DNA of 64,000 nucleotides. Source: a virus. Every line of letters starts with the position of its first letter. Positions within the stretch are counted from its first letter, which is position 1. The stretch spans positions 20,312 through 84,311 of the IMG/VR virus record IMGVR_UViG_3300047491_001293; one strand, written 5' to 3'. Under the pieces are notes generated by a model. The model worked only from the letters and a program-made list of their open reading frames with translations, searched no databases and was not told where the DNA came from. The translations under genes and the position numbers were made by a program. Positions 11,672 through 61,570 of the stretch are shown piece by piece.

Positions 11672-12679
11672 ATGAAAAGACCAACATCAATAGATCTGTT
11701 CGCTGGCTGTGGCGGTTTGACTCTTGGGTTCGAGATGGCAGGATTTGAGTGCATTGCCTGCAATGAGATTGACAAAAACACCTGTGATACCCTTCGTGCG
11801 AATCGGCCATCATGCAATCTCATAGATGGCGACATATGCATGGTCAACTTCAAGGAATTTAAAGGTGAGGCTGACATTGTGACTGGGGGTTTTCCATGCC
11901 AATCATTCAGCTCCGCCGGCAAAAGGCTGGGACTCGATGACATCCGTGGCACCATGTTCTACCAGTTTGCCAGGGCCATCGATGAGATAAGGCCGAGAAT
12001 GGCAATTGGCGAGAATGTCCGTGGCCTTCTGAGCCATGACAATGGAAAAACCCTTGAGACCATGCTTTCTGTTCTGGACTCGATTGGGTATCGGGTTGAA
12101 CAACCATACCTACTCAAGGCCGTTGATTATGATGTCCCACAGAAGAGGGAGCGCCTATTCATCATCGCCATCAGGAAAGATTTGGACATACAATTCAAGC
12201 CTCCACAAAAATCTACAAAAAAATGGACACTGTATGATGCCCTAAGATCAGGGGGGCTTTTCGCAACTGATGTGCCACCATCGGCTGGATCCAAATACCC
12301 AGAATCAAGAAGAAGTGTCTTGGACATGGTGCCACCTGGTGGCTGCTGGCGTAATCTTCCTCTGGACATACAAAAATCCTACATGAAAGGTTGTTTCTAC
12401 AACGATGGTGGCAAGACCGGCATAGCCAGGAGGCTGAGCTGGGATGAGCCAAGCCTAACACTGCTTTGCAGCCCGATTCAGAAACAGACAGAGAGATGCC
12501 ATCCAGATGAAACAAGGCCGTTGACAATAAGGGAATACGCAAGGATACAGACATTCCCGGACAGCTACACATTCTGCGGCCCTAACTCAAGCCAGTACAA
12601 GCAGATTGGCAATGCGGTTCCTGTGAACCTAGCCATGGCCGTTGGCAAGGCGGTTAGATCGTCACTTGGCGTGTTTTAG
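11672..12679 (+). CDS. dcm: DNA (cytosine-5)-methyltransferase
   Basis: DLFAGCGG, GGFPCQ, ENV, QKRER, RIQTFP, QIGNAVP. Confidence 0.95.
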   Translation: MKRPTSIDLFAGCGGLTLGFEMAGFECIACNEIDKNTCDTLRANRPSCNLIDGDICMVNFKEFKGEADIVTGGFPCQSFSSAGKRLGLDDIRGTMFYQFARAIDEIRPRMAIGENVRGLLSHDNGKTLETMLSVLDSIGYRVEQPYLLKAVDYDVPQKRERLFIIAIRKDLDIQFKPPQKSTKKWTLYDALRSGGLFATDVPPSAGSKYPESRRSVLDMVPPGGCWRNLPLDIQKSYMKGCFYNDGGKTGIARRLSWDEPSLTLLCSPIQKQTERCHPDETRPLTIREYARIQTFPDSYTFCGPNSSQYKQIGNAVPVNLAMAVGKAVRSSLGVF

Positions 12680-12706
12680 TTGCCATTGAAAAGCATAAAT
12701 AGACAC

Positions 12707-13348
12707 ATGGTCATAAACGACAGCCAAAAACTAATTTTTTTTATGACGCCACGATGCTCGTCCACCACCCTCCATGAACTGATAACAAGTAATTTCACGG
12801 GTTGTAGGACGATAACATCGACCACCAGCGCCGGGGTTGTGCACCACCACACCAGAATGGCTGGCATGTGGGAAAGCAAGTACTACAAATACACAGCAGT
12901 CGTGCCAACGAGGCCACTGCTGGAATGGGCGGTGTCTTGTTACAACAACTTCGTTGGCAACTTCCCGCACCACAACTTCTCGTCTTCTTTTGATGACTTT
13001 GTTGTCAACATGCGTGGCATCGACACTAGATATGGCGATGAAATGACTGGATTCAACTGGTTCCAGCATTCTCCACAGAACATGATTGCCCTTGGGCGTG
13101 GAAGGCTGCCGAATTTCACGAGAATAGTGACATTAAGGCATGATCACCTTCTGGAGGACATGTGGCAGATCATAGAGAGTGGGTTCCACAAGAACATGTT
13201 CATTCCCAATGTTCGAAGAAATTCATGCCATCCAGTCGCAAAGGTGAACATATCCGATGATGTCAAAAGAACCATCGTCAAGCTTTGCTGCCCATTTGGC
13301 GAAGACTGGGATGAAAAGCAAAGGGCAAAAATAGCAAAATTACCATGA
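12707..13348 (+). CDS. Sulfotransferase-like protein (divergent)
   Basis: FFMTPRCSSTTL resembles the 5'-PSB loop; RPLLEWAVSCY resembles the 3'-PB motif; TAAATA 5 nt upstream. Confidence 0.55.
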   Translation: MVINDSQKLIFFMTPRCSSTTLHELITSNFTGCRTITSTTSAGVVHHHTRMAGMWESKYYKYTAVVPTRPLLEWAVSCYNNFVGNFPHHNFSSSFDDFVVNMRGIDTRYGDEMTGFNWFQHSPQNMIALGRGRLPNFTRIVTLRHDHLLEDMWQIIESGFHKNMFIPNVRRNSCHPVAKVNISDDVKRTIVKLCCPFGEDWDEKQRAKIAKLP

Positions 13349-13360
13349 GAGGTTCAACCC

Positions 13361-13810
13361 ATGAAAATCATATCTCACAGAGGCAACTTGATCGGACCAG
13401 ATCCAAGCACTGAAAACACATTGAGGCAATTTGAGATAGCCATATCAAAAGGGTTTGAGATTGAGATCGATGTCTGGAAAATCGTTGAAGGAACCGTGTG
13501 GATTGGCCATGACCAGGGAGACAGCGTGATGCCAAAATCTTTCCTTGAGGACAACTCAAGCAGAATATGGGTTCATGCCAAAAGCCTACAGGCTGTAGAG
13601 TCTCTGCGTTTCATGCATGGCATAAACTGGTTCTGGCACGAAAACGACAGAATGACCATCACAAGCAAGGGTTACATATGGTGCTATCCAGGAACATACA
13701 TTGATGGCGGCATTAGCGTTGTAAACCAGAAGGATTTCCAGACCGATCATGACATACTTGGCATATGCACTGATTTCCCAGAAAACTTCAAGAGGTTTCA
13801 ATCTTTGTGA
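13361..13810 (+). CDS. GDPD/PLC-like phosphodiesterase-family protein
   Basis: IISHRGN, EIDVW, WIGHD, WVHAK, GICTD; GAGG SD. Confidence 0.8.
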   Translation: MKIISHRGNLIGPDPSTENTLRQFEIAISKGFEIEIDVWKIVEGTVWIGHDQGDSVMPKSFLEDNSSRIWVHAKSLQAVESLRFMHGINWFWHENDRMTITSKGYIWCYPGTYIDGGISVVNQKDFQTDHDILGICTDFPENFKRFQSL

Positions 13811-14103
13811 TTTGATATTTTTTCAACGAACTTGGATATCACAGTATCAAAAAAACCATCACTTACATCCATGTGCATGGCGTGTTTGAACTCATCGCTG
13901 AGCATCTTCGACAAAACATGCCAGTCATCTTCATATACGCAAATTGGCGGCTTTCTGCTGGACAAGGCATTTTGCAATCTATCACTCAACATCCTAAACC
14001 CCTCCAAAAGACCATGACAAAGCGACTTAATGTCGCCCTCAAAAACCTCACCTGGGGTAATTTTTTCAAAAAATAATTTGCCCATGCTCATGAACGCCAG
14101 CAT
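13798..14103 (-). CDS. Hypothetical protein
   Basis: 101 aa ORF converging on the GDPD gene. Confidence 0.5.
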   Translation of the reverse strand: MLAFMSMGKLFFEKITPGEVFEGDIKSLCHGLLEGFRMLSDRLQNALSSRKPPICVYEDDWHVLSKMLSDEFKHAMHMDVSDGFFDTVISKFVEKISNHKD

Positions 14104-14320
14104 ACGAAAAACGAGTTGCTTGTGTCAACACCTAAGCCTTTTTTTGCAAACGATTTATAACTTTTCTAAATGAAAATATGGGCAAAAAAACAAGGTCTTG
14201 GATATGTGGGCATTATGGGAAAATAAACTGCGAACAAGGTAAAACAGCTTGTTTTTTTGAAATGGTTAAGACATAGTAAGTTTGAGTTTTGTTTTTTTTA
14301 GCTCACAACAAGGGGAAAAG

Positions 14321-53587: not shown

Positions 53588-54334
53588 CTATAGATCATCA
53601 TCATTTTTAGAGAATTTAAAACCAGAATTTATTGCGGCAATACGAATTTGACTCACATATTGGTTTGAAACCCTCATATCTTTGGCTATATCAGACCCAC
53701 GCTCGCCATCAAGCATGCGCCTAACTATCTCCAATGTCCTGTTTGGTTTGTCCTTGCGTGGGTACTGCGATAAAACTCTGTTAATTGTTCGCCCACTCTC
53801 AATAACTGCGGAGTGGACTGTAACCTTTGTGACATGGTATTTGGCGCATAGCTGATCGACACTAGCGCCAGCATTGTATTCATCCGCAATTGCCTTTCTG
53901 CGATTGGCTCTCTGTTCATGTGAAAGCTGCGGTATGGTGTCCTTGACAGTACCCTTGCAAACAGAGTGTTTTTTGCATATCTCATCAATTGGAATGCCCT
54001 GTATGTAATCATTCACAATCTTAGATCTTCTGACAGACCTATCTTTCCTACTCATCCTAGGGATCGCAAGGTGTTTGACATATTCTTTTGATACCGAAAA
54101 TTTTTTTGCTATTTCATCAATTTTCATTCCACAATTGAAAGCTTGAACAATCTCAAGCCTTCTCTTGGCTCTCTCTGGATGGGAAAGTTTTTTTGGTTTT
54201 ACACAAGAAATGATCTTGTTGATCATCGCAAGCGGTACCTTGTGTTTTTTGACCAAAACATCAATCGTCATGCCATTTTGACAATCAGAAACAATGGCAT
54301 CATGGATTGCCTTCGTGACTTGGTAGTTAGGCAT
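53588..54334 (-). CDS. Multi-HTH DNA-binding protein
   Basis: Five units of the type I...Y/F..G..IDEIA.K..VS...V. Confidence 0.75.
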   Translation of the reverse strand: MPNYQVTKAIHDAIVSDCQNGMTIDVLVKKHKVPLAMINKIISCVKPKKLSHPERAKRRLEIVQAFNCGMKIDEIAKKFSVSKEYVKHLAIPRMSRKDRSVRRSKIVNDYIQGIPIDEICKKHSVCKGTVKDTIPQLSHEQRANRRKAIADEYNAGASVDQLCAKYHVTKVTVHSAVIESGRTINRVLSQYPRKDKPNRTLEIVRRMLDGERGSDIAKDMRVSNQYVSQIRIAAINSGFKFSKNDDDL

Positions 54335-55047
54335 TAGGATCTCCGCAGTGAAGAGATTACCTCTTCAAGTTCCTTATTGGTTTTGTTGAATACCTTGAAC
54401 AGCCTTTTGCCAGATGTCTTCTTTGATCTTCTCAAACGCTTGACAAATCCAAATGAATCTAAAAACCGAACTGCTAATGCATGATTGCCAGATATAAGTG
54501 GAACCGTCTTTTCACCAATTATGGCAGGTTCCTCTTGTGTGGACTTTCTCATGGCATTGATTAAGTCAGTAAAATTAAAAAGACCAATTTGCCTAAGGAA
54601 GCCCCAGGTTTTGATGACTGTTTCAATCGAAATGGATTTATTTCCCTTCCTTGAAACAAATATTACTTTGTCATTATCCATAGTCCAACAGTTCTTGGAA
54701 AACCGTCTCACCGAACGACCATGGAATCTTGTCCCATTGCTTGAATTGACCATTTTCCTTGGAGTCTTGGTTTGCTCACGACCTATCTTCCTTGGAATTT
54801 GAATATGCCCATAATTCTCAAATGACTTAAGCTCATTTTCAATCAAATTTAAAATGTTTGTACGCAGATCAGAGACTTTTTCCTCCAGCTCAAGAGCATG
54901 TCTTTGCCCAGCTATCTGGTCGTCAATTGTCCTTGCCTGTTTGATGTGGCCAGCAGCATCCACAAGGATTTTCATCCTCACTTGATTTAAATCTTTGGAC
55001 AGACCATCGACTATGTCACGAATCTTCCTAATCACTTCCTTGGCCAT
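54334..55047 (-). CDS. Hypothetical basic protein
   Basis: 237 aa; AGGAG SD. Confidence 0.65.
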   Translation of the reverse strand: MAKEVIRKIRDIVDGLSKDLNQVRMKILVDAAGHIKQARTIDDQIAGQRHALELEEKVSDLRTNILNLIENELKSFENYGHIQIPRKIGREQTKTPRKMVNSSNGTRFHGRSVRRFSKNCWTMDNDKVIFVSRKGNKSISIETVIKTWGFLRQIGLFNFTDLINAMRKSTQEEPAIIGEKTVPLISGNHALAVRFLDSFGFVKRLRRSKKTSGKRLFKVFNKTNKELEEVISSLRRS

Positions 55048-55059
55048 TTCTAAACTCCT

Positions 55060-55091
55060 AAAAAAAAGGCCACCAAGCTTCCCTAGTGGCC
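55060..55091 (-). terminator. Putative terminator after 55100-55987
   Basis: GGCCAC-N12-GTGGCC with an A8 run giving a U-tract on the minus strand. Confidence 0.5.
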
Positions 55092-55099
55092 GAAACCAA

Positions 55100-55987
55100 T
55101 TAAATGTCAGTGCTGGTACCCAATATCTCTGCAGCAGCTTGGATTTTTCGATCTCCTTGGGCGACAGGAGTGTCGTTCATGGCAAACTTAGGATATGAAG
55201 GGTAAACAACTGGGGAGATGAGTCGAAATATGATCATCAGATCATTGACGCTCTTGGCATAGCCACACACTCTTTCCAGAAACCCTGGACGGACAGTCAC
55301 ACCACTGTCACGCTGGATTGCAGCAATTTTTTCTTCATCGGTAAGCAACTCTAAGGAAGATGTGCCACTGAGGAACGCAGCAATCTTCATGCCAGCTGAT
55401 TTTTCCGTGTCCGTGGCCGGCACAAACTCCCGACCATGACCAAAATGACCATTTAACAGATCGTTCAACGGCTTGATGCCAATGACTGGATTGAGAATCA
55501 GCTCTTGATGTATGAGCTTTTCAGCGTCAGTTTGGTGCAGCCCAGCCTCAACAAACGCCTCAATGTAGACAGTCCTTGCGTCGTGGCCTTCTGGAACCTC
55601 TGGAAAACGAAACTTGAACTTGTCTGTGAAAATCCAAGAGGCAGTGTGATCATCCTTGCCGTCCTTTTGGCTGACAAGCTGCGGATTGCTTGGCTTGTTC
55701 TTTTGCTCAAAATATTTTTGGGCAAATTTTGTCAGACAGATTTCATTCAGCGTGTCCTTGGTGTGCTCAAGCCTTTGCATCACAGGCTCACTAACTGTCT
55801 TTGCCTCGATCCAACGGGCGAATGCGGCCTCCTCTGTCGGTGTAAAATCAAGTCTCCATTTCGCAACCTTACCCTTGGGCGCTGGGGTAGCCTTTGGCAG
55901 ATTGTCCATGAGATTTTCAAGCACATTGGTCGCTGTCTGAACAGCGGAAGTAGACTTGGCCTTCTTAGTAGCCATGATGTTCTCCAT
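55100..55987 (-). CDS. Hypothetical protein, probably early
   Basis: 295 aa (start may be MATKK at 55975); early-type promoter upstream. Confidence 0.75.
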   Translation of the reverse strand: MENIMATKKAKSTSAVQTATNVLENLMDNLPKATPAPKGKVAKWRLDFTPTEEAAFARWIEAKTVSEPVMQRLEHTKDTLNEICLTKFAQKYFEQKNKPSNPQLVSQKDGKDDHTASWIFTDKFKFRFPEVPEGHDARTVYIEAFVEAGLHQTDAEKLIHQELILNPVIGIKPLNDLLNGHFGHGREFVPATDTEKSAGMKIAAFLSGTSSLELLTDEEKIAAIQRDSGVTVRPGFLERVCGYAKSVNDLMIIFRLISPVVYPSYPKFAMNDTPVAQGDRKIQAAAEILGTSTDI

Positions 55988-56032
55988 TTCTTTCCATTCT
56001 TTGAGCTGAGCCCACTGCCCCGCTCTGAAACA

Positions 56033-56060
56033 AGTTTACGACTGTTATGTAAACTGTAAA
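56033..56060 (-). promoter_or_regulatory. T4-early/sigma70-type promoter
   Basis: Minus strand TTTACA-N16-TAAACT. Confidence 0.55.
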
Positions 56061-56069
56061 GTAAAAATT

Positions 56070-56387
56070 TTAAATTTGTTTAAGTTCCATTTTAAATTTT
56101 GGAAATTCATCGTAAGTCCTTCCAAGTAAAAGCCTTCCGTTTTTCTTTTTGTTCTTTCCTCCCCATTGCTTGAAGAAAAATGCAATGTTTTTTTCTTCAC
56201 ATTGGCTTTTGATCGACAAAACCCAAGATTCATGCATTGGTCTTGATTTGGCGCCACTTTCACCACCAACTATTACCCAGTCTATACCACTAAAATCAAC
56301 TACACCAAGATCCTCAAGCAATGGCTCTATGGACAGAAATTTCACGCTTGCTGGTGTGTTTTTCAAGTCTTCAATCCGTGGCAGACC
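56070..56387 (-). pseudogene. C-terminal fragment of a DUF5131 (phage Gp37/Gp68) gene, fused in frame to a microprotein cassette
   Basis: [43 protein letters not shown]. Confidence 0.85.
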
Positions 56388-56597
56388 ATCATTCTGCCAA
56401 TGATATGATAAGCTACCTTTCCAAGTATCATGCCACAATTTATTTGTAGACCAATTTCTCGACACATAAACAAATGAATTAAATGGCAAAAAATTTACTG
56501 TCGTATATCTGACTATGTGATTTTTCCAATTACATGACAAATCAAAACTAATATTCCAGCATTCAATGTCAGAACAGTTATTTTGTTTTAATATCAT
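56388..56597 (-). CDS. W/C/S-rich microprotein cassette reading into the DUF5131 fragment
   Basis: [27 protein letters not shown]; close paralog of 57045-57251. Confidence 0.55.
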
Positions 56598-56645
56598 CTT
56601 TTTTATACCATTCATCCAGACAAATAAACTTTACACGACTATCCA

Positions 56646-56828
56646 TCACGCATGCCTCCTTTCGTAAGCATGAGCATTCATATAAAAAGCCGCCTCTTCC
56701 GCTGTAAGAAACAGCTTGCAATTATTGGATTCAGTAAAAATTCTAGCTTGCTTAATGTCTTTATAATTAGCACTTAACAACCGAAAATTGCTAAATTTAT
56801 CCCCAAAAACAAAATAACACCTAATCAT
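56646..56828 (-). CDS. Small hypothetical protein within the array
   Basis: 60 aa MIRCYF; AGGA SD. Confidence 0.5.
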   Translation of the reverse strand: MIRCYFVFGDKFSNFRLLSANYKDIKQARIFTESNNCKLFLTAEEAAFYMNAHAYERRHA

Positions 56829-56838
56829 GACTCAAATC

Positions 56839-57048
56839 CTAAACATATTGTGAAAAAAGTGAAAACCTACAGCCACTAGAAAACATTTTTGATCTCCATG
56901 CTATTTTTGCATTAAAAATACACCTGTCTCTTCTTGATGCCCAACAAATCGAACTAGGATGGCAATTATTCCAACATTCATCGTTGCGATATCCAAGCCT
57001 ATTCCAGCAAACCTTGTCACCATCGTTTGAAATGTTTTTAAAGATCAT
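56839..57048 (-). CDS. W/C/S-rich microprotein cassette
   Basis: MIFKNISNDGDKVCW, 69 aa; ATGA overlap. Confidence 0.55.
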   Translation of the reverse strand: MIFKNISNDGDKVCWNRLGYRNDECWNNCHPSSICWASRRDRCIFNAKIAWRSKMFSSGCRFSLFSQYV

Positions 57049-57251
57049 ATGTTCCGCATCCAACAAAGTGACCAAAAATTCTTTTTATCCCAAAGTTCAG
57101 ACCAAGGTCCAGACCAAGACACGGACCAAGAAAAACAAATAGAAAAAGACAAATGCCAAGACCAAGCCATATGATTTTTCCAATGATGCGATAAATCAAA
57201 ATTATCATTCCAACATCGAATGTGAGAAAAATTATTTTGTTTTAATATCAT
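57045..57251 (-). CDS. W/S-rich microprotein cassette
   Basis: MILKQNNFSHIRCW...CWMRNI, 68 aa; ATGA overlap. Confidence 0.6.
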   Translation of the reverse strand: MILKQNNFSHIRCWNDNFDLSHHWKNHMAWSWHLSFSICFSWSVSWSGPWSELWDKKNFWSLCWMRNI

Positions 57252-57454
57252 ATGTTTTTGTTCCAACAAAATGATTTACAACTGGACGCAGACAAAGACG
57301 AAGACCAAGGTCCAGACCAAGGTCCAGACCAAGACCAAGACCTAGACCAATACTTACACCAAGGCTTAGAACCAAAACCAGACCAAGATACAGACATAGA
57401 CCTAGACAAAGACCAACATTTTACAGAAGAAAAAATATTAGTTTTGATAATCAT
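57248..57454 (-). CDS. W/S-repeat microprotein cassette
   Basis: MIIKTNIFSSVKCW...WSRSWSWSGPWSGPWS...CWNKNI, 68 aa; ATGA overlap. Confidence 0.6.
   Translation of the reverse strand: MIIKTNIFSSVKCWSLSRSMSVSWSGFGSKPWCKYWSRSWSWSGPWSGPWSSSLSASSCKSFCWNKNI
57302..57349. repeat. Hexamer/12-mer tandem repeat encoding W-S and G-P units
   Basis: AGACCAAGGTCC x2 then AGACCA AGACCA AGACCT AGACCA; 57313-57335 is identical to 57098-57120. Confidence 0.85.
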
Positions 57455-57672
57455 ATTGCTTGATTCCAATGTTCAGATCGTGTGCTTGGAAAAGTCCAGC
57501 AAATACTTGCTATATCATTATCTCTACCAAACTTAGAAGTTCCAAAATATCCTGTATTTCCATCAAAATCATAACTGGACAGGCACATACCATCTCTCGT
57601 AACTGGATGTGTCTTAATCCAATCGTTTGCAAATATTTGCACCAATGATGAAGACCAGATTTTTAAAATCAT
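57451..57672 (-). CDS. Microprotein cassette
   Basis: MILKIWS...HWNQAI, 73 aa; ATGA overlap. Confidence 0.55.
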   Translation of the reverse strand: MILKIWSSSLVQIFANDWIKTHPVTRDGMCLSSYDFDGNTGYFGTSKFGRDNDIASICWTFPSTRSEHWNQAI

Positions 57673-57857
57673 GTCGTCTTCTTTATATTACTATCCCTTT
57701 GCTCCAAAAAGATTTTACTCACCCTTTCATGTCTTTTCCAAAATTGCTCACGATTGCCATAATATTCTCCGTTTTCTTTAACCATTTCTAAAGCACAAAT
57801 GATATGATCCAACTCTGACAAGGTTAATTTAATGTTCCACGATAATTTAATGGTCAT
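57669..57857 (-). CDS. Small hypothetical protein
   Basis: 62 aa; GEYYGNREQFWKR; AGGAG SD. Confidence 0.6.
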   Translation of the reverse strand: MTIKLSWNIKLTLSELDHIICALEMVKENGEYYGNREQFWKRHERVSKIFLEQRDSNIKKTT

Positions 57858-58254
57858 TTCTCCTATATCTTAAAATGTTGTCTAATTTGTGATCAAATGA
57901 TGAATGCCAGCTATTGTGTGCAATTTTGACTGCATTTGGCAAGTGATCATATTCATCTTTGTCCAAATCAACAATATCATCAGGATGGTTGATAGATCCA
58001 TTCAATTTACTACCCATTGCTATTCTGATGATTCCTTCAGGAGCAAAGCGTAATCTATCTGCTCCACGACTATGACCAATCCACACATCAGCAGATACAT
58101 CGGGAATAGTGAAAGGCAACCCTTCGTCAAAAAACACATGATATCCTCTTTTTCTCATGAATTTTTCTAAATTGGCATACAGGTTCCCTGCTATAACTCT
58201 GTCTGGATTTCCTTTTATAATGACGACAGTCTTACCGATTCCATCTATACTCAT
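57847..58254 (-). CDS. Minimal alpha/beta-hydrolase-like protein
   Basis: WIGHSRGA nucleophile elbow; C-terminal D and H; GGAGG SD. Confidence 0.6.
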   Translation of the reverse strand: MSIDGIGKTVVIIKGNPDRVIAGNLYANLEKFMRKRGYHVFFDEGLPFTIPDVSADVWIGHSRGADRLRFAPEGIIRIAMGSKLNGSINHPDDIVDLDKDEYDHLPNAVKIAHNSWHSSFDHKLDNILRYRRNDH

Positions 58255-58402
58255 ATATATTCATCCTCCAATTAGAACAACCAAACGGATTATTGCATAC
58301 TTTTTCTTTCCAATTCATTGACATTGTAATGCCACCATTAATTTTCCAAAAAATAGTAGGCCAATTATAAGATCGTGGATAGGAATGATTTTTATGTATC
58401 AT
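58232..58402 (-). CDS. Microprotein cassette (absent from ORF track)
   Basis: MIHKNHSYPRSYNWPTIFWK...CSNWRMNIYEYRWNR, 56 aa. Confidence 0.4.
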   Translation of the reverse strand: MIHKNHSYPRSYNWPTIFWKINGGITMSMNWKEKVCNNPFGCSNWRMNIYEYRWNR

Positions 58403-58438
58403 GTCATAACCCAGTGTCGTGAGTGAACATTTTGAAGA

Positions 58439-58651
58439 TCATATATTAAACTTCCAATTGCGTGATCGTGGATTATTACTTGCATTGATAGATTCAGCTT
58501 TGTCCTCACGCCAAACTCCAGATAAATACATATAATTCCAGCAAGGAAAACAAATTTCACCAAACCAAAGATCCTTAGCACTACCAAAAGTATTGGAACC
58601 ACCTTGATGGCTAAAAACTTCAATTATAGAATTGGGTGTTTTAATATTCAT
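58439..58651 (-). CDS. Microprotein cassette
   Basis: MNIKTPN...RNWKFNI, 70 aa; ATGA overlaps at both ends. Confidence 0.5.
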   Translation of the reverse strand: MNIKTPNSIIEVFSHQGGSNTFGSAKDLWFGEICFPCWNYMYLSGVWREDKAESINASNNPRSRNWKFNI

Positions 58652-58809
58652 GGTAACCTTTCAAAAATAAAACATAGCCGATCCCAGCTATAATCATCTG
58701 TTTTGTTTTGGCTCCAACATGCAGATGACCATATGTTATAGGCTGGAAAGCAAAAACATCTTCTGTAATTAGATTTAAAAATCTCAGACCTACAAGAGGT
58801 TGTTCTCAC
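58648..58809 (-). CDS. Microprotein cassette (absent from ORF track)
   Basis: GTG start, 53 aa; CFCFPAYNIWSSACWSQNK. Confidence 0.4.
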   Translation of the reverse strand: MRTTSCRSEIFKSNYRRCFCFPAYNIWSSACWSQNKTDDYSWDRLCFIFERLP

Positions 58810-58814
58810 TTTGA

Positions 58815-58952
58815 CTACCTAAAAAGTAGAGAGCCATACATGTAAAAATCAAACAATACTGATCTTTTTGCCACAAACCACATCGTACTGCAATGCCATG
58901 GTCTGGCTAATTCATGGTGTTTCGACCAACAATGACTTTTATCAACTATCAT
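58815..58952 (-). CDS. Microprotein cassette (absent from ORF track)
   Basis: MIVDKSHCWSKHHELARPWHCSTMWF, 45 aa; GGAG SD. Confidence 0.45.
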   Translation of the reverse strand: MIVDKSHCWSKHHELARPWHCSTMWFVAKRSVLFDFYMYGSLLFR

Positions 58953-58972
58953 CTAAAAAAATCTCCATAATT

Positions 58973-59122
58973 TCAGAATAGTACGCAGTAATATCCACCA
59001 AAAAGTCTAGTTCCATGCCATGACATAATATGACCACCCCAACATAAACAATGAGATTGACCTGTAAAATGTCCATCAAATGCATAGGAACATAACATCT
59101 TGTTTTTATTTGCAAATATCAT
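58973..59122 (-). CDS. Microprotein cassette (absent from ORF track)
   Basis: [30 protein letters not shown], 49 aa; ATGA overlap. Confidence 0.45.
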   Translation of the reverse strand: MIFANKNKMLCSYAFDGHFTGQSHCLCWGGHIMSWHGTRLFGGYYCVLF

Positions 59123-59343
59123 GATTTTAAAATCCATGCCTTTCGCAACCATGCTTTGTTAAAATCAGAACTCATAAAATCATAAATATGATACGAACAA
59201 CAAAAACCAAATACCCCAAAATCGCAAGAATAACAATCCTTTATATTGCGACTGTGACAAAATTCATCAAAAAAACATCTTGAACTATCAAGATTATTTT
59301 GCCAAAAATCTGCATCAGAATAATAAAATGATTTAAACAACAT
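59119..59343 (-). CDS. Cys/aromatic-rich microprotein cassette
   Basis: MLFKSFYY...AWILKS, 74 aa. Confidence 0.5.
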
Positions 59344-59464
59344 TTTGAAAACTCATGTTTTGTTGCCAATTAAGTGACCGGGCGCATCCAGGCGAAACCT
59401 TGGTGCAGCCACGAACTGGGTTCCAGGTTGCGCTGGTCCATTCAATTGTGCTTTTCTCAGACAT
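59333..59464 (-). pseudogene. N-terminal fragment of the DUF5131 (Gp37/Gp68) gene
   Basis: [28 protein letters not shown] then unrelated residues and a stop; AAGGAG SD. Confidence 0.85.
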
Positions 59465-59502
59465 AGTCAGTCTCCTTTTTTCTTGAATTTTCATTCAATT
59501 TA

Positions 59503-59530
59503 AGGTTACCGACATATTCCGATTTGTAAA
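59503..59530 (-). promoter_or_regulatory. T4-early/sigma70-type promoter of the DUF5131/cassette locus
   Basis: Minus strand TTTACA-N16-TAACCT. Confidence 0.55.
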
Positions 59531-59535
59531 ATTGG

Positions 59536-60399
59536 CTAAATCAAATTGTTGGAGATGAGAGTTAGATTTTGCTCAGCCATGAGATTGTAGGTTGTCAAAA
59601 AGAAGGCATGTGGCATGCCACGATTCTCAAAGTGCGGAAGCATTTCCTTGCCACGCTTCAAGGTCTTGGCAAGAAGCTCCGCATCTTTGCAACCCAAAAG
59701 TATCTTGATTGTGTCAACAAGGTCATAGTATGAAAGCAACAGGGATTCATGTGTCTCCTGTGGATCCAAGAAGAAATACTTGAGTGTCCTTTCAACGGCG
59801 TCATTGCTAAAGATGGTTCCATCGGTGTGATGCAGCCAGCCAGCGCATATGAGGTCAACCTTCTCGGATTCCTTGAGGCCATAGTCATAGGCAACCTCCT
59901 GGGTGGTTGACATGAGGTGGGAGACAACCGTGGTGCCGCCAAACAATTTCTCGTCTCCATGGTATTCAATTGCCTTGTACTTGCTGAAATGTATGTCCTT
60001 GTTCAGCATCAGCTCTGGAATCATAATCCCACACTTGGAGCATCTGGCATCACCACCCATCCCATCATCACACCTCTGAAACTTGTGTGCGCAATTGGAT
60101 ATGTCCACAAGCCTAGAAGCCGCCGACATCTCCGACTGCCCAAGCGTTTCACCATAGCCAACAACCCACATCCTTGGCCGCTGCCACTTTCCAAACATGA
60201 AACTGTCTGGCATCTCTATGTTTTCGCTCACAGGATGGAAAACGGAAAACATATACCTCTCTGATGTTGGCTTTTTTGAAACCACCATTTTGTCTTTGAG
60301 GCATGAAATCTCTGGCTCAGAAATCTGTATCATGCATTCTTTTGGCCATTCATGAATGCAATCATAGAACTCGCCATTGTGCTGAACTCTAAATGACAT
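59536..60399 (-). CDS. Hypothetical protein with Zn-ribbon and degenerate HD-like domain
   Basis: CAHKF..CSKCG; AIEYH..SHL..AGWLHH; GGAGG SD. Confidence 0.55.
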   Translation of the reverse strand: MSFRVQHNGEFYDCIHEWPKECMIQISEPEISCLKDKMVVSKKPTSERYMFSVFHPVSENIEMPDSFMFGKWQRPRMWVVGYGETLGQSEMSAASRLVDISNCAHKFQRCDDGMGGDARCSKCGIMIPELMLNKDIHFSKYKAIEYHGDEKLFGGTTVVSHLMSTTQEVAYDYGLKESEKVDLICAGWLHHTDGTIFSNDAVERTLKYFFLDPQETHESLLLSYYDLVDTIKILLGCKDAELLAKTLKRGKEMLPHFENRGMPHAFFLTTYNLMAEQNLTLISNNLI

Positions 60400-61315
60400 C
60401 GAGATCACCTCCAGAACGCTTCAAGGTCTCACGCATGGCCCTAAGGAACTTTTCCTTGAGCTGGCGAACCCTCTCTTTTGTTATTCCAAGGGTCGAGCTT
60501 ATCTGTTCAAGGTTTTTCCTTTTTCTGCCGTTGATTCCATAGTATTCTTCAATGATCCTTATCTGGCGGGCTATGTCATTGCACTTGACCACCTTCTTGA
60601 CCATGCCTATGACCATGTTTATGAAATTTGCATTCTCACGCTGGTGCATCTCAATGCATTCAGAGCTATCCTCCGATTGTGGAAGATTGTCCTCGTAATT
60701 ATCATCAAGTGATATGTGTTTTCCACCCTTGATCCTCTTCATCTTAACCCCACGGAAGAAATTCTTTTTCAGCACCCATACACAATATGTGCAGAACTTG
60801 TTGCCTAGTGTGTAATTGAAATAGTCAACACTCTTAAGAACATCAAAGTAAGCATCGGAAAGTGAAAGATCTGGGGTTGCCTCGCCAGAGTGTCTGAAAT
60901 CACTCTTTAATATCATCCCAGCCAGCCTGAAGTTGCTGCTGGCAAGCTGATTCCTTATGGAGTAAATGTCGTTCAGCATGGATTCAACCTTTGCCACCAA
61001 TGACTTATCGGGTCGTGATGGCCTTATCTTCTTTCTAAGCCTTCCTGCCATAAACTTTAGGTAATTCATTTTCTTGAAAAGATGGTACTCTTGTTCCCTC
61101 GTGAGAAGTGGCTCCTCATAACAAGGCCTCATCGCCGGAAGCTTGTTTCTGACCCTTAGATTCTCAACCTTGCGTCGTTCTTGGTCATATCTATCCTTGT
61201 CTGGCATTTCTGCCAGTATTTTCCCTGCCAAGGATGGTCTGTCAAAGTCTGGATGGTGGAAATGCTTGAGCTTGCATGAAAGGATAGCGACGAAACTGCC
61301 AGGTGCTTTACCCAT
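60389..61315 (-). CDS. Sigma-70 family factor, planctomycete type
   Basis: EEPLLTREQEYHLFKKMNYLKF, SNFRLA, VDYFNYTLGNKFCTYCVW, LEQISSTLGITKERVRQL. Confidence 0.9.
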   Translation of the reverse strand: MGKAPGSFVAILSCKLKHFHHPDFDRPSLAGKILAEMPDKDRYDQERRKVENLRVRNKLPAMRPCYEEPLLTREQEYHLFKKMNYLKFMAGRLRKKIRPSRPDKSLVAKVESMLNDIYSIRNQLASSNFRLAGMILKSDFRHSGEATPDLSLSDAYFDVLKSVDYFNYTLGNKFCTYCVWVLKKNFFRGVKMKRIKGGKHISLDDNYEDNLPQSEDSSECIEMHQRENANFINMVIGMVKKVVKCNDIARQIRIIEEYYGINGRKRKNLEQISSTLGITKERVRQLKEKFLRAMRETLKRSGGDLDVI

Positions 61316-61399: not shown

Positions 61400-61570
61400 T
61401 TAATTTGGTGGGCCACCCCAGTAGAAGTAACTGTACTGGTTGGTGTCATGCACATAGGACCATATATATGAATCGTTCCACTCAGATAGACCTCTGAAGT
61501 CCTTGAATGAGTATGAGAACTGCTGGTTAATCCATGTGGATTCTTGCAAGTGATGAATTTTGAAAATCAT
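61400..61570 (-). CDS. W/Y/S-rich MIFK microprotein (absent from ORF track)
   Basis: MIFKIHHLQESTWINQQFSYSFKDFRGLSEWNDSYIWSYVHDTNQYSYFYWGGPPN, 56 aa, fills an operon gap. Confidence 0.55.
   Translation of the reverse strand: MIFKIHHLQESTWINQQFSYSFKDFRGLSEWNDSYIWSYVHDTNQYSYFYWGGPPN

Follow-up and report, generated by a model that had tools for sequence, protein, structure and literature searches.

The stretch of DNA analyzed here, referred to as the window, comprises 64,000 nucleotides of a freshwater phage and corresponds to positions 20312-84311 of the 84,311-nt IMG/VR record IMGVR_UViG_3300047491_001293, for which CheckV estimates a completeness of 19%. At 56388-59380, its minus strand harbors a gap-free chain of short open reading frames (ORFs) whose stops and starts overlap or almost abut. 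The chain consists of about twelve cassette-derived units, one further cassette 3'-end remnant and three unrelated small genes. This chain, here named array 1, splits a gene of the DUF5131/Gp37-Gp68 family (PF07505), and a second array, missed by a preliminary description of the window drawn from its letters alone, is located outside the window in the same record. The cassettes belong to a microgene family that is new and restricted to one lineage; they lie in a plastic part of the phage genome and are connected by an unusual coding junction.

Architecture of array 1

The preliminary description had reported about eleven co-oriented ORFs of 45-74 aa chained along the minus strand, and the chain was recovered at the same coordinates with a count of about twelve. 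Fourteen minus-strand ORFs of at least 45 aa with an ATG start cover 83% of 56388-59380, while 500 block shuffles yielded a mean of 1.6 such ORFs and 9% cover, with a maximal cover of 35%. Among the start-to-start spacings given earlier, those of 203, 203, 209, 218 and 221 nt were recovered from the ATGs at 57454/57251/57048, 58651/58442, 57672/57454 and 59343/59122, but one of 220 nt was not. The five minus-strand junctions of the form TGGA-N10-ATGAT were all found, and the motif is enriched, as the window contains seven exact matches, five of them in the array, compared to a mean of 1.38 in 100 dinucleotide shuffles, none of which reached seven (maximum 6). As proposed, the junction carries the last Trp codon of one unit, its stop and the start of the next. 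The noted richness in Trp, Cys and Ser is equally evident: these residues account for 7.7%, 5.6% and 13.7% of the cassette products, respectively, compared to 1.5%, 1.8% and 7.1% in the long ORFs of the record.

The picture of an undescribed modular microgene family with conserved ends and unrelated interiors was borne out. At the N-terminal end, about 15 codons are conserved (M-I-[LITF]-K-x-N-x-x-S-x-x-x-C-W-[SN]), and about eight at the C-terminal end (S-[LF]-C-W-x-x-N-I), while the interior is unconstrained. Accordingly, DNA homology between units is clear only within the first ~60 nt, in which the closest pair (57251 versus 56597) is 83% and several other pairs are 60-67% identical (95th percentile of shuffled sequences, 55%). 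The interiors are at background, with the exception of two units that share a (TGGTCT)n microsatellite. Excerpts of the literature on DUF5131, on Trp-rich tandem small phage proteins and on de novo and ORFan genes, among the matches listed, describe no such array.

Along the minus strand, the block opens with a cassette 3'-end motif, S-L-x-W-x-x-N-M (59333..59380), which is fused in frame to the N-terminal remnant of the DUF5131 gene, continues for seven extra codons to a stop and is one base short of the canonical ATATGA junction. It is followed by cassette 1 (59119..59343; 74 aa, starting MLFK), cassette 2 (58973..59122; starting MIFA at an ATGA junction, with a longer ORF from 59152), cassette 3 (58815..58952; 45 aa, starting MIVD, with an HCW motif), a cassette-like ORF 4 with a GTG start (58648..58809; 53 aa, ACWSQN motif), cassette 5 (58439..58651; 70 aa, starting MNIK and ending NWKFNI), a cassette 6 truncated to 12 codons and a stop and preceded by a canonical junction (58404..58442), and cassette 7 (58232..58402; 56 aa, starting MIHK, with Trp at position 14). 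Beyond two of the unrelated genes, the chain resumes with cassette 8 (57451..57672; 73 aa, starting MILK and ending HWNQAI), cassette 9 (57248..57454; 68 aa, starting MIIK and ending CWNKNI), cassette 10 (57045..57251; 68 aa, starting MILKQNN and ending CWMRNI, with the sister-strain orthologue P0121 being 91% identical) and cassette 11 (56839..57048; 69 aa, starting MIFK, with three CW motifs about 33 nt apart). Past the third unrelated gene, a cassette 3'-end remnant reading …CLDEWYKKD… and carrying a one-base change in its junction (56578..56652) leads to cassette 12 (56388..56597; starting MILKQNN), whose reading frame continues into the C-terminal DUF5131 remnant.

The interior of cassette 9 consists largely of (TGGTCT)n, and the corresponding hexanucleotide microsatellite (57290..57416; AGACCA on the plus, TGGTCT on the minus strand) comprises 21 copies with a match of 64%; a shorter run is present at 57090-57118. 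In all three metagenomic DNA runs compared with the region (see below), contigs with unrelated flanks, from other loci or organisms, pile onto the AGACCA/TGGTCT repeat at 57295-57350, indicating that similar hexanucleotide repeats occur elsewhere in these communities.

A DUF5131 gene split by the array

The coordinates 56388 and 59380, given as the limits of the array in the preliminary description, coincide exactly with the two breaks in a split gene, which that description had missed. Against the PF07505 profile, the ORF immediately preceding the array (59494..59333) aligns with positions 1-26 (E 5.6e-10) and the one at its end (56615..56070) with positions 127-243 (E 6.9e-40). Thus, a full-length match over the 243 profile positions is absent; the two parts are 2,993 nt apart, and positions 27-126 are gone. 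The N-terminal remnant (59381..59494) comprises 38 codons equal to residues 1-38 of the sister-strain protein P0136 and breaks off after the second Cys in the cluster motif, while the C-terminal remnant (56070..56387; 105 codons plus stop) is 100% identical to P0134. In between, the block of 2,993 nt takes the place of 115 codons (345 nt).

Intact alleles exist in sister strains; here and below, strains were compared exclusively through predicted proteins and metagenome contigs aligned to 54500-61000. A protein search identified P0002, an intact relative of 248 aa whose cluster contains five alleles on 14 contigs, and the split form is represented by a cluster of five alleles on 12 contigs. 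The intact sister alleles, of 248 or 258 aa, are full-length members of PF07505. In comparison with the window, P0002, P0133, P0134 and P0136 share every one of 28-38 residues at the N-terminus and 99-100% of 105 residues at the C-terminus; for P0134, the identity is 100% over the shared 28 and 105 residues. The first eleven residues of P0136 are those of the window ORF, ten of which precede the start used by the 248-aa alleles. A tblastn search of the whole record with P0136 retrieved only residues 1-38 and 154-258, and the missing 115 residues (29-143 of P0002, including the third Cys) were found nowhere in the 84 kb. The C-x6-C-x2-C motif of the intact alleles is therefore incomplete: in the window, a stretch of ten residues passes into cassette sequence where the intact proteins continue H-C-Y-A-E. 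Counting codons places the end of the first identical stretch at 59381 and the start of the second at 56387, so that the foreign block spans exactly 56388-59380. The flanks match those of the intact alleles without a difference, whereas the cassettes can hardly be aligned with one another; it follows that the array predates the insertion and arrived ready-made.

The left edge of the block starts within a cassette 3'-end motif (repeat family D5), and the right edge tentatively appears to end within a truncated cassette (repeat family D12), where it resembles a motif inside a different cassette, at its residues ~20-27 (79% of 24 nt). We considered whether both edges share the same cassette-relative break, as in a target duplication, which was tentatively rejected as the left edge is a 3'-end motif and the right an internal one. 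We also considered whether the cassettes are diverged copies of the missing DUF5131 middle part and rejected this, as ten cassettes gave no PF07505 match at E <=10 and tblastn with an intact allele was empty within the block.

According to the excerpt of PMC9477430, DUF5131 is a subgroup of the radical-SAM superfamily. Intact P0002 matches the PADLOC candidate-defence models PDC-M30B (E 1.6e-108) and PDC-M41B (E 8.4e-107), and the intact allele also gives a weak match to the model 'radical SAM mobile pair protein A'. That a phage carries, and in some strains loses, a gene matching candidate-defence models may be worth attention. Viral, metagenome and genome contig collections were queried with the two flanking genes, P0002, cassette P0138 and P0145; the best DUF5131 relative is 71% identical, and no cassette relative was found in these collections.

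Array 2 and the extent of the cassette family

Array 2 is located at 15586-14344 of the record on the minus strand, about 5 kb (4.7-6 kb) before the window and about 60 kb from array 1. It was first seen as weak matches of a DNA profile built from four core units and then by listing of ORFs, and it comprises seven units that start M-I-[TL]-K-x-N-...-E-C-W-S and end N-W-x-x-x-I. This array is intergenic and splits no gene; its neighbors are a Cys-rich ORF of 170 aa on one side and an intact C5 cytosine methyltransferase on the other. The methyltransferase is followed, at about 12554-14166 of the record, by a second similar stretch, and both contain a long similar ORF in another frame.

Within the record, a protein profile of nine units found nothing beyond the two arrays at E <0.1, and a start of the form M[ILM][ILFTVH][KR] is present in 12 of 669 ATG-initiated ORFs of at least 30 aa, ten of these twelve being located in the two arrays. 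Outside the phage, a word-seeded protein search gave five matches among 24 candidates. A profile search of 1,835,955,588 representative proteins yielded six matches at E <=0.001; five are sister-strain orthologues of particular cassettes (80-98% identical), and the sixth, the repeat-containing P0127 (1,165 aa), was discarded as a spurious low-complexity match. None of the cassettes submitted matched a Pfam (ten), PHROG (three) or PADLOC (two) family. The cassette family is thus restricted to one phage lineage and is without relatives outside it. The phage itself is frequent in lake and freshwater metagenomes: 20 of the 23 runs listed, these 20 being from 13 studies, contain part of the stretch, and 17 of the 23 contain at least half of the sampled words.

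Conserved ends around a hypervariable core rich in Trp, Cys, Ser and Asn, several tandem copies and a physical association with a radical-SAM gene (DUF5131 subgroup; excerpt of PMC9477430) might also be expected of precursors of ribosomally synthesized and post-translationally modified peptides (RiPPs), in which a leader and follower would flank a variable core processed by a radical-SAM or other maturase. However, the sole radical-SAM gene nearby is destroyed by the array, with the loss of the third Cys and 115 residues, and array 2 adjoins DNA methyltransferases instead of a maturase. In addition, a Pfam scan of 18 neighboring or large ORFs identified no peptidase, transporter, SPASM-type or maturase-like domain, and interiors made of microsatellite would be odd for a core peptide. 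We therefore regard RiPP precursors as very unlikely.

Coding capacity of the cassettes

At the given base composition, the probability that 68 codons stay open by chance is 0.0045. Trp accounts for 7.7% of residues in the ORF frame, while 1.7% is expected from the composition, corresponding to a 4.5-fold excess; the two other sense frames give 0.4% and 4.0%. Leu and Val are three-fold depleted relative to the same expectation. The frame-specific excess of Trp favors real proteins. Purging of stop codons, which make up 7.6% of codons in the composition model, was considered as its cause and rejected on the reasoning that too few one-step replacements of a stop codon would give Trp to yield an excess of six percentage points. 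At the conserved I, K, N, S and C positions, the copies in both arrays use differing synonymous codons, and in the closest pair of paralogues the ratio of nonsynonymous to synonymous differences (pN/pS) is 0.35 for the first 90 nt in the ORF frame. Cassette 1 occurs in sister strains as ten allelic protein variants, all of which are open from the cassette start, as are 13 of the 15 array-2 cassette alleles read; the remaining two, P0128 and P0148, enter the frame from a different 5' half. Taken together, the sequence evidence suggests that the cassettes most likely encode proteins that are real but under weak constraint. With alternative genetic codes (table 4, TAG=Q), no coherent long ORF emerged across the block, and recoding was rejected.

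On the plus strand, antisense ORFs at 57252-57536 and 57049-57174 start at the CATATG junction and consist of repeats rich in Asp, Gln, Gly and Pro; they probably arise as a side effect of the hexanucleotide repeat.

The junction is conserved at the DNA level in both arrays, third codon positions are weakly relaxed, and CATATG provides an ATG on both strands, giving rise to Asp/Gln-rich antisense ORFs such as 57252-57536. It might hence be speculated that the units are non-coding repeats, acting as structured RNA, iterons or protein-binding sites, with merely incidental ORFs. We consider this highly improbable, as no Rfam 15 family reached its gathering score in the whole window and RNAalifold predicted no consensus pairs, and hence no conserved structure, at the junctions of seven aligned units. 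The high ORF cover, well above the maximum reached by shuffling, argues against it as well, as does the lack of interruptions in the minus-strand frame of any unit or any strain allele seen. No tRNA was found.

Stability of array 1 and strain differences

Contigs of three DNA runs from three studies, in pieces of up to 3.2 kb, were aligned to 54500-61000. Array 1 displayed the same order of cassettes with zero to two differences per piece, no contig skipped the block, and the microsatellite length was unchanged in three spanning contigs. The few differences include a double change from Ile to Asp in cassette 12, which renders it more similar to cassette 10, and a nearby synonymous change. Being near-invariant in three lake metagenomes, array 1 is not being diversified on that time scale, and the notion of a 'hypervariable library' in the sense of ongoing diversification was not upheld. 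Between strains, there is structural polymorphism, in that the whole block is either present or absent.

Strains also differ in array 2. Four alleles of the cassette starting MILKTNSF share a prefix that, in the present genome, precedes a different cassette 216 nt upstream, and other alleles of this cassette carry two further prefixes, one of them on a body 100% identical to that of this genome. Thus, alleles of one cassette, some of them with bodies 98-100% identical, follow three different upstream sequences, none of which resembles that of this genome, and the similarity breaks at the junction. Different upstream neighbors and a break at the junction fit unequal recombination, or gain and loss of cassettes, at this site, which renders the earlier suggestion that the junction serves as a shuffling point plausible. 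In P0128 and P0148, the 5' half is a Gly/Leu-rich stretch resembling a shifted-frame reading (57232..57375) of the microsatellite region of array 1. Finally, cassette 12 has an orthologue in another strain, P0126, that stands alone as a 62-aa ORF without the DUF5131 fusion.

Co-oriented cassettes with a conserved junction, together with strain differences at the junctions of array 2, raise the question of whether the arrays are an integron-like, shufflon-like or retroelement-driven device that actively generates diversity during the phage life cycle. The preliminary description had recognized no integrase or reverse transcriptase in the window, and this holds for the 84-kb record, itself 19% complete: neither a PF00078 (RVT_1) reverse transcriptase nor a PF00589 (Phage_integrase) tyrosine recombinase was matched, the latter family being present in 14 of 14 genomes of a control search. 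The junctions show no attC-like imperfect palindrome, recurring inverted repeat or hairpin site. Since all cassettes are direct repeats, inversion would be impossible. Considering also that array 1 is nearly the same in three independent metagenomes, we think an active device extremely improbable.

Other genes in and around the array

The three unrelated genes noted earlier among the cassettes are real ORFs (58254..57847, 57857..57669 and 56828..56646), all on the minus strand. The first (57847..58254) encodes a conserved hypothetical protein of 135 aa matching phrog_30942 (E 1.5e-9), with 37 relatives elsewhere that are about 50% identical and occur in many metagenomes, including metagenome-assembled genomes of Paceibacterota; no match in Pfam, NCBIfam, PADLOC or PDB was obtained. 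Its G-H-S-R-G-A motif recalls a nucleophile elbow, but the protein is far too short for an alpha/beta hydrolase. The second (57669..57857) encodes 62 aa. Divergent variant contigs from two runs (X2 and X16) map onto it at 57655-57833, with up to 17 differences in 172 nt, suggesting that a related copy or strain of that gene circulates in the same lakes. The third (56646..56828; 60 aa) has only a weak phrog match (E 0.063).

From 53588 to the end of the window, all ORFs of at least 120 aa are located on the minus strand, except for two that are nested in others. According to a Pfam scan, they include a sigma-factor-like gene (60389-61315) and a helix-turn-helix gene (53588-54334), both on the minus strand. 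The region at 56-60 kb differs from the rest of the window by a GC content of 0.35-0.38 compared to 0.40-0.48, and its minus strand has a strong excess of G over C. Between the two remnants of the DUF5131 gene, no gap between ORFs exceeds 20 nt, and the first strong terminator-like site beyond the array lies only after the next gene. This hairpin (55091-55068, minus strand; ten pairs and a T-run), 3' of a 295-aa gene, probably ends the operon containing the array. Just upstream of the sigma-factor gene, a solitary, cassette-like 56-aa ORF rich in Trp, Ser and Tyr starts MIFK (61400-61570, minus strand); as it scored 1.4 bits against the hidden Markov model of the family, it was not counted as a member.

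Origin and possible role of the microgenes

The explanation we favor, with a confidence slightly better than even, is that the 2,993-nt block is an accessory element of about twelve paralogous, translationally coupled microgenes rich in Trp, Cys and Ser and three unrelated small genes, which would have entered the DUF5131/Gp37-Gp68 gene of a freshwater phage as a preformed part of an older array. By overwriting 115 codons, the insertion would have inactivated this gene in the present haplotype. Unequal recombination between conserved junctions, each formed by the last codons of one unit, the ATGA and the first codons of the next, may add units to the arrays or remove them, while the interiors might diversify by point mutation, mosaic exchange and growth of the TGGTCT repeat. 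The products would most likely be real, fast-evolving and dispensable phage microproteins, expressed from an operon starting at the sigma-factor gene. With regard to their role, it might be hypothesized that they are host-interaction or anti-defence proteins in which a conserved tag is combined with a variable body, as in the internal proteins of T-even phages.

Several observations weigh against this explanation. Array 1 is without variation in cassette order or copy number in the three DNA runs, and unequal recombination at the junction, which we infer for array 2, is read from N-terminal extensions of predicted proteins and not from DNA. In the paralogue comparison, pN/pS is equally low in one antisense frame (0.28), and third positions, over 16 codons in nine copies, show 0.55 differences per site compared to 0.50 and 0.47 at first and second positions. 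A codon-usage model trained on the long genes of the record gives the array-1 cassettes scores of -0.25 to +0.07 per codon, whereas real neighbors reach +0.15 to +0.34, and the two microsatellite cassettes score higher in the antisense frame rich in Asp and Gln. In the RNA-library run X19, two short contigs in all map to 54500-61000; the signal within the array is a single contig of 239 nt (56759-56997), which may be carry-over of DNA. Moreover, no homologue, fold or partner points to a function.

The most serious competing view is that the cassettes are selfish or neutral filler, whose frames are kept open solely to maintain ribosome cover of the operon mRNA, and thereby to avoid polarity on downstream genes, and whose peptides are inert. 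As the junction provides both stop and start, it would permit translation of whatever sequence is in frame. Interiors at background similarity, two units that are plain hexanucleotide repeat and codon-usage scores near zero would fit this well. In addition, the existence of strains with the intact allele indicates that the phage can do without the entire block. Truncation or decay has affected several units, yet a new ORF always follows within 20 nt, and in P0001 and P0129 the cassette part has accumulated one to two changes in 67 aa compared to none in the adjoining 105 aa of the DUF5131 remnant. However, a model that requires just any open frame predicts neither the 4.5-fold, frame-specific excess of Trp nor the three-fold depletion of Leu and Val. 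It also leaves unexplained why arrays separated by about 60 kb share the N-terminal motif while differing in the synonymous codons used for it, and the recurrence of C-W-[SN] suggests that the peptide is under constraint. We therefore consider inert filler possible but unlikely, and continue to prefer an accessory block encoding fast-evolving microproteins.

A bolder version, which we regard as decidedly doubtful, would see the array as a 'microgene nursery'. A fixed scaffold, consisting of the coupling junction, the N- and C-terminal frames and a C-W dyad at each end, might allow new coding sequence to arise from scratch, the raw material being hexanucleotide microsatellite exchanged at the junction. 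The resulting Trp/Cys-rich library might serve as early or injected counter-defence effectors, and pieces of the array may also move into other genes and knock them out, as would be the case here for the radical-SAM gene, whose intact form is itself similar to candidate-defence models.

The origin and use of tiny, lineage-restricted phage genes is an open question, and four of its aspects are visible together at this locus: a family without relatives outside one phage lineage; copies with an interior of hexanucleotide repeats, possibly a snapshot of coding sequence arising from non-genic repeats; a coding junction that seemingly acts as a recombination handle; and, within the same lakes, a natural pair of knock-out and intact haplotypes for a radical-SAM gene of unknown function. 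If functional, the microproteins would constitute a novel effector class of phages, designed as a tag plus a variable body; if inert, they would be a clean example of translational coupling that lets junk ORFs persist and multiply. As the phage is common in freshwater metagenomes, samples already collected can be used to address these questions.

Comparison with known systems

The readings as an integron, a diversity-generating retroelement (DGR) or RiPP precursors each fail a defining feature. Similar to integron cassettes, the units are co-oriented, promoterless and arranged in tandem with a conserved boundary; however, there is no integrase and no attC, and the units are paralogous and of about 200 nt, whereas integron cassettes are unrelated to each other and of 0.5-1 kb. 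With regard to DGRs, in which an adenine-only pattern would be the comparison, the paralogues differ at all base types in the alignments. As for DUF5131 (PF07505), the flanking remnants belong to the family, while the cassettes have no similarity to it.

The closest precedent for the dynamics are the hyperplastic regions of T4-type phages, in which shuffling at PeSL units has reportedly also been treated by Comeau et al. (2014; PMC4122927). The available excerpt of Arbiol et al. (2010; PMC2839356) describes PeSL units between small ORFan genes that mediate insertion, deletion and replacement. Both regions are runs of small, non-essential ORFan genes, display differences by insertion, deletion or replacement between very close phages, and have a short conserved sequence between genes that serves, here putatively, as a point of recombination. 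In contrast to PeSL, which consists of an intergenic sigma-70-type early promoter and, following it, a stem-loop terminator, the present junction is coding on both sides, with an ATGA stop/start overlap and no intergenic DNA. No hairpin is conserved at the array junctions, a consensus scan identified no promoter or terminator recurring there, and the genes joined here are paralogues of one family.

With respect to protein design, the closest precedent, by analogy, are the internal proteins of T-even phages, on which Rao & Black 2010 cite Repoila et al. (1994). The N-terminal tag of the cassettes is presumably unrelated to that of T4, and no [LI]-x-E site for cleavage is evident. A search for a PF03420 prohead protease was negative in the 84 kb of this 19% complete record, but as the control search was likewise empty in every genome, this says little. 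The excerpt of Rao & Black (2010; PMC3012670) portrays IPI, IPII and IPIII as diverse, injected counter-defence proteins that share a capsid targeting sequence. Unlike these, the cassettes additionally have a conserved C-terminal motif. The likeness is one of design and not of sequence: in both arrays, a short conserved N-terminal tag precedes diverse bodies.

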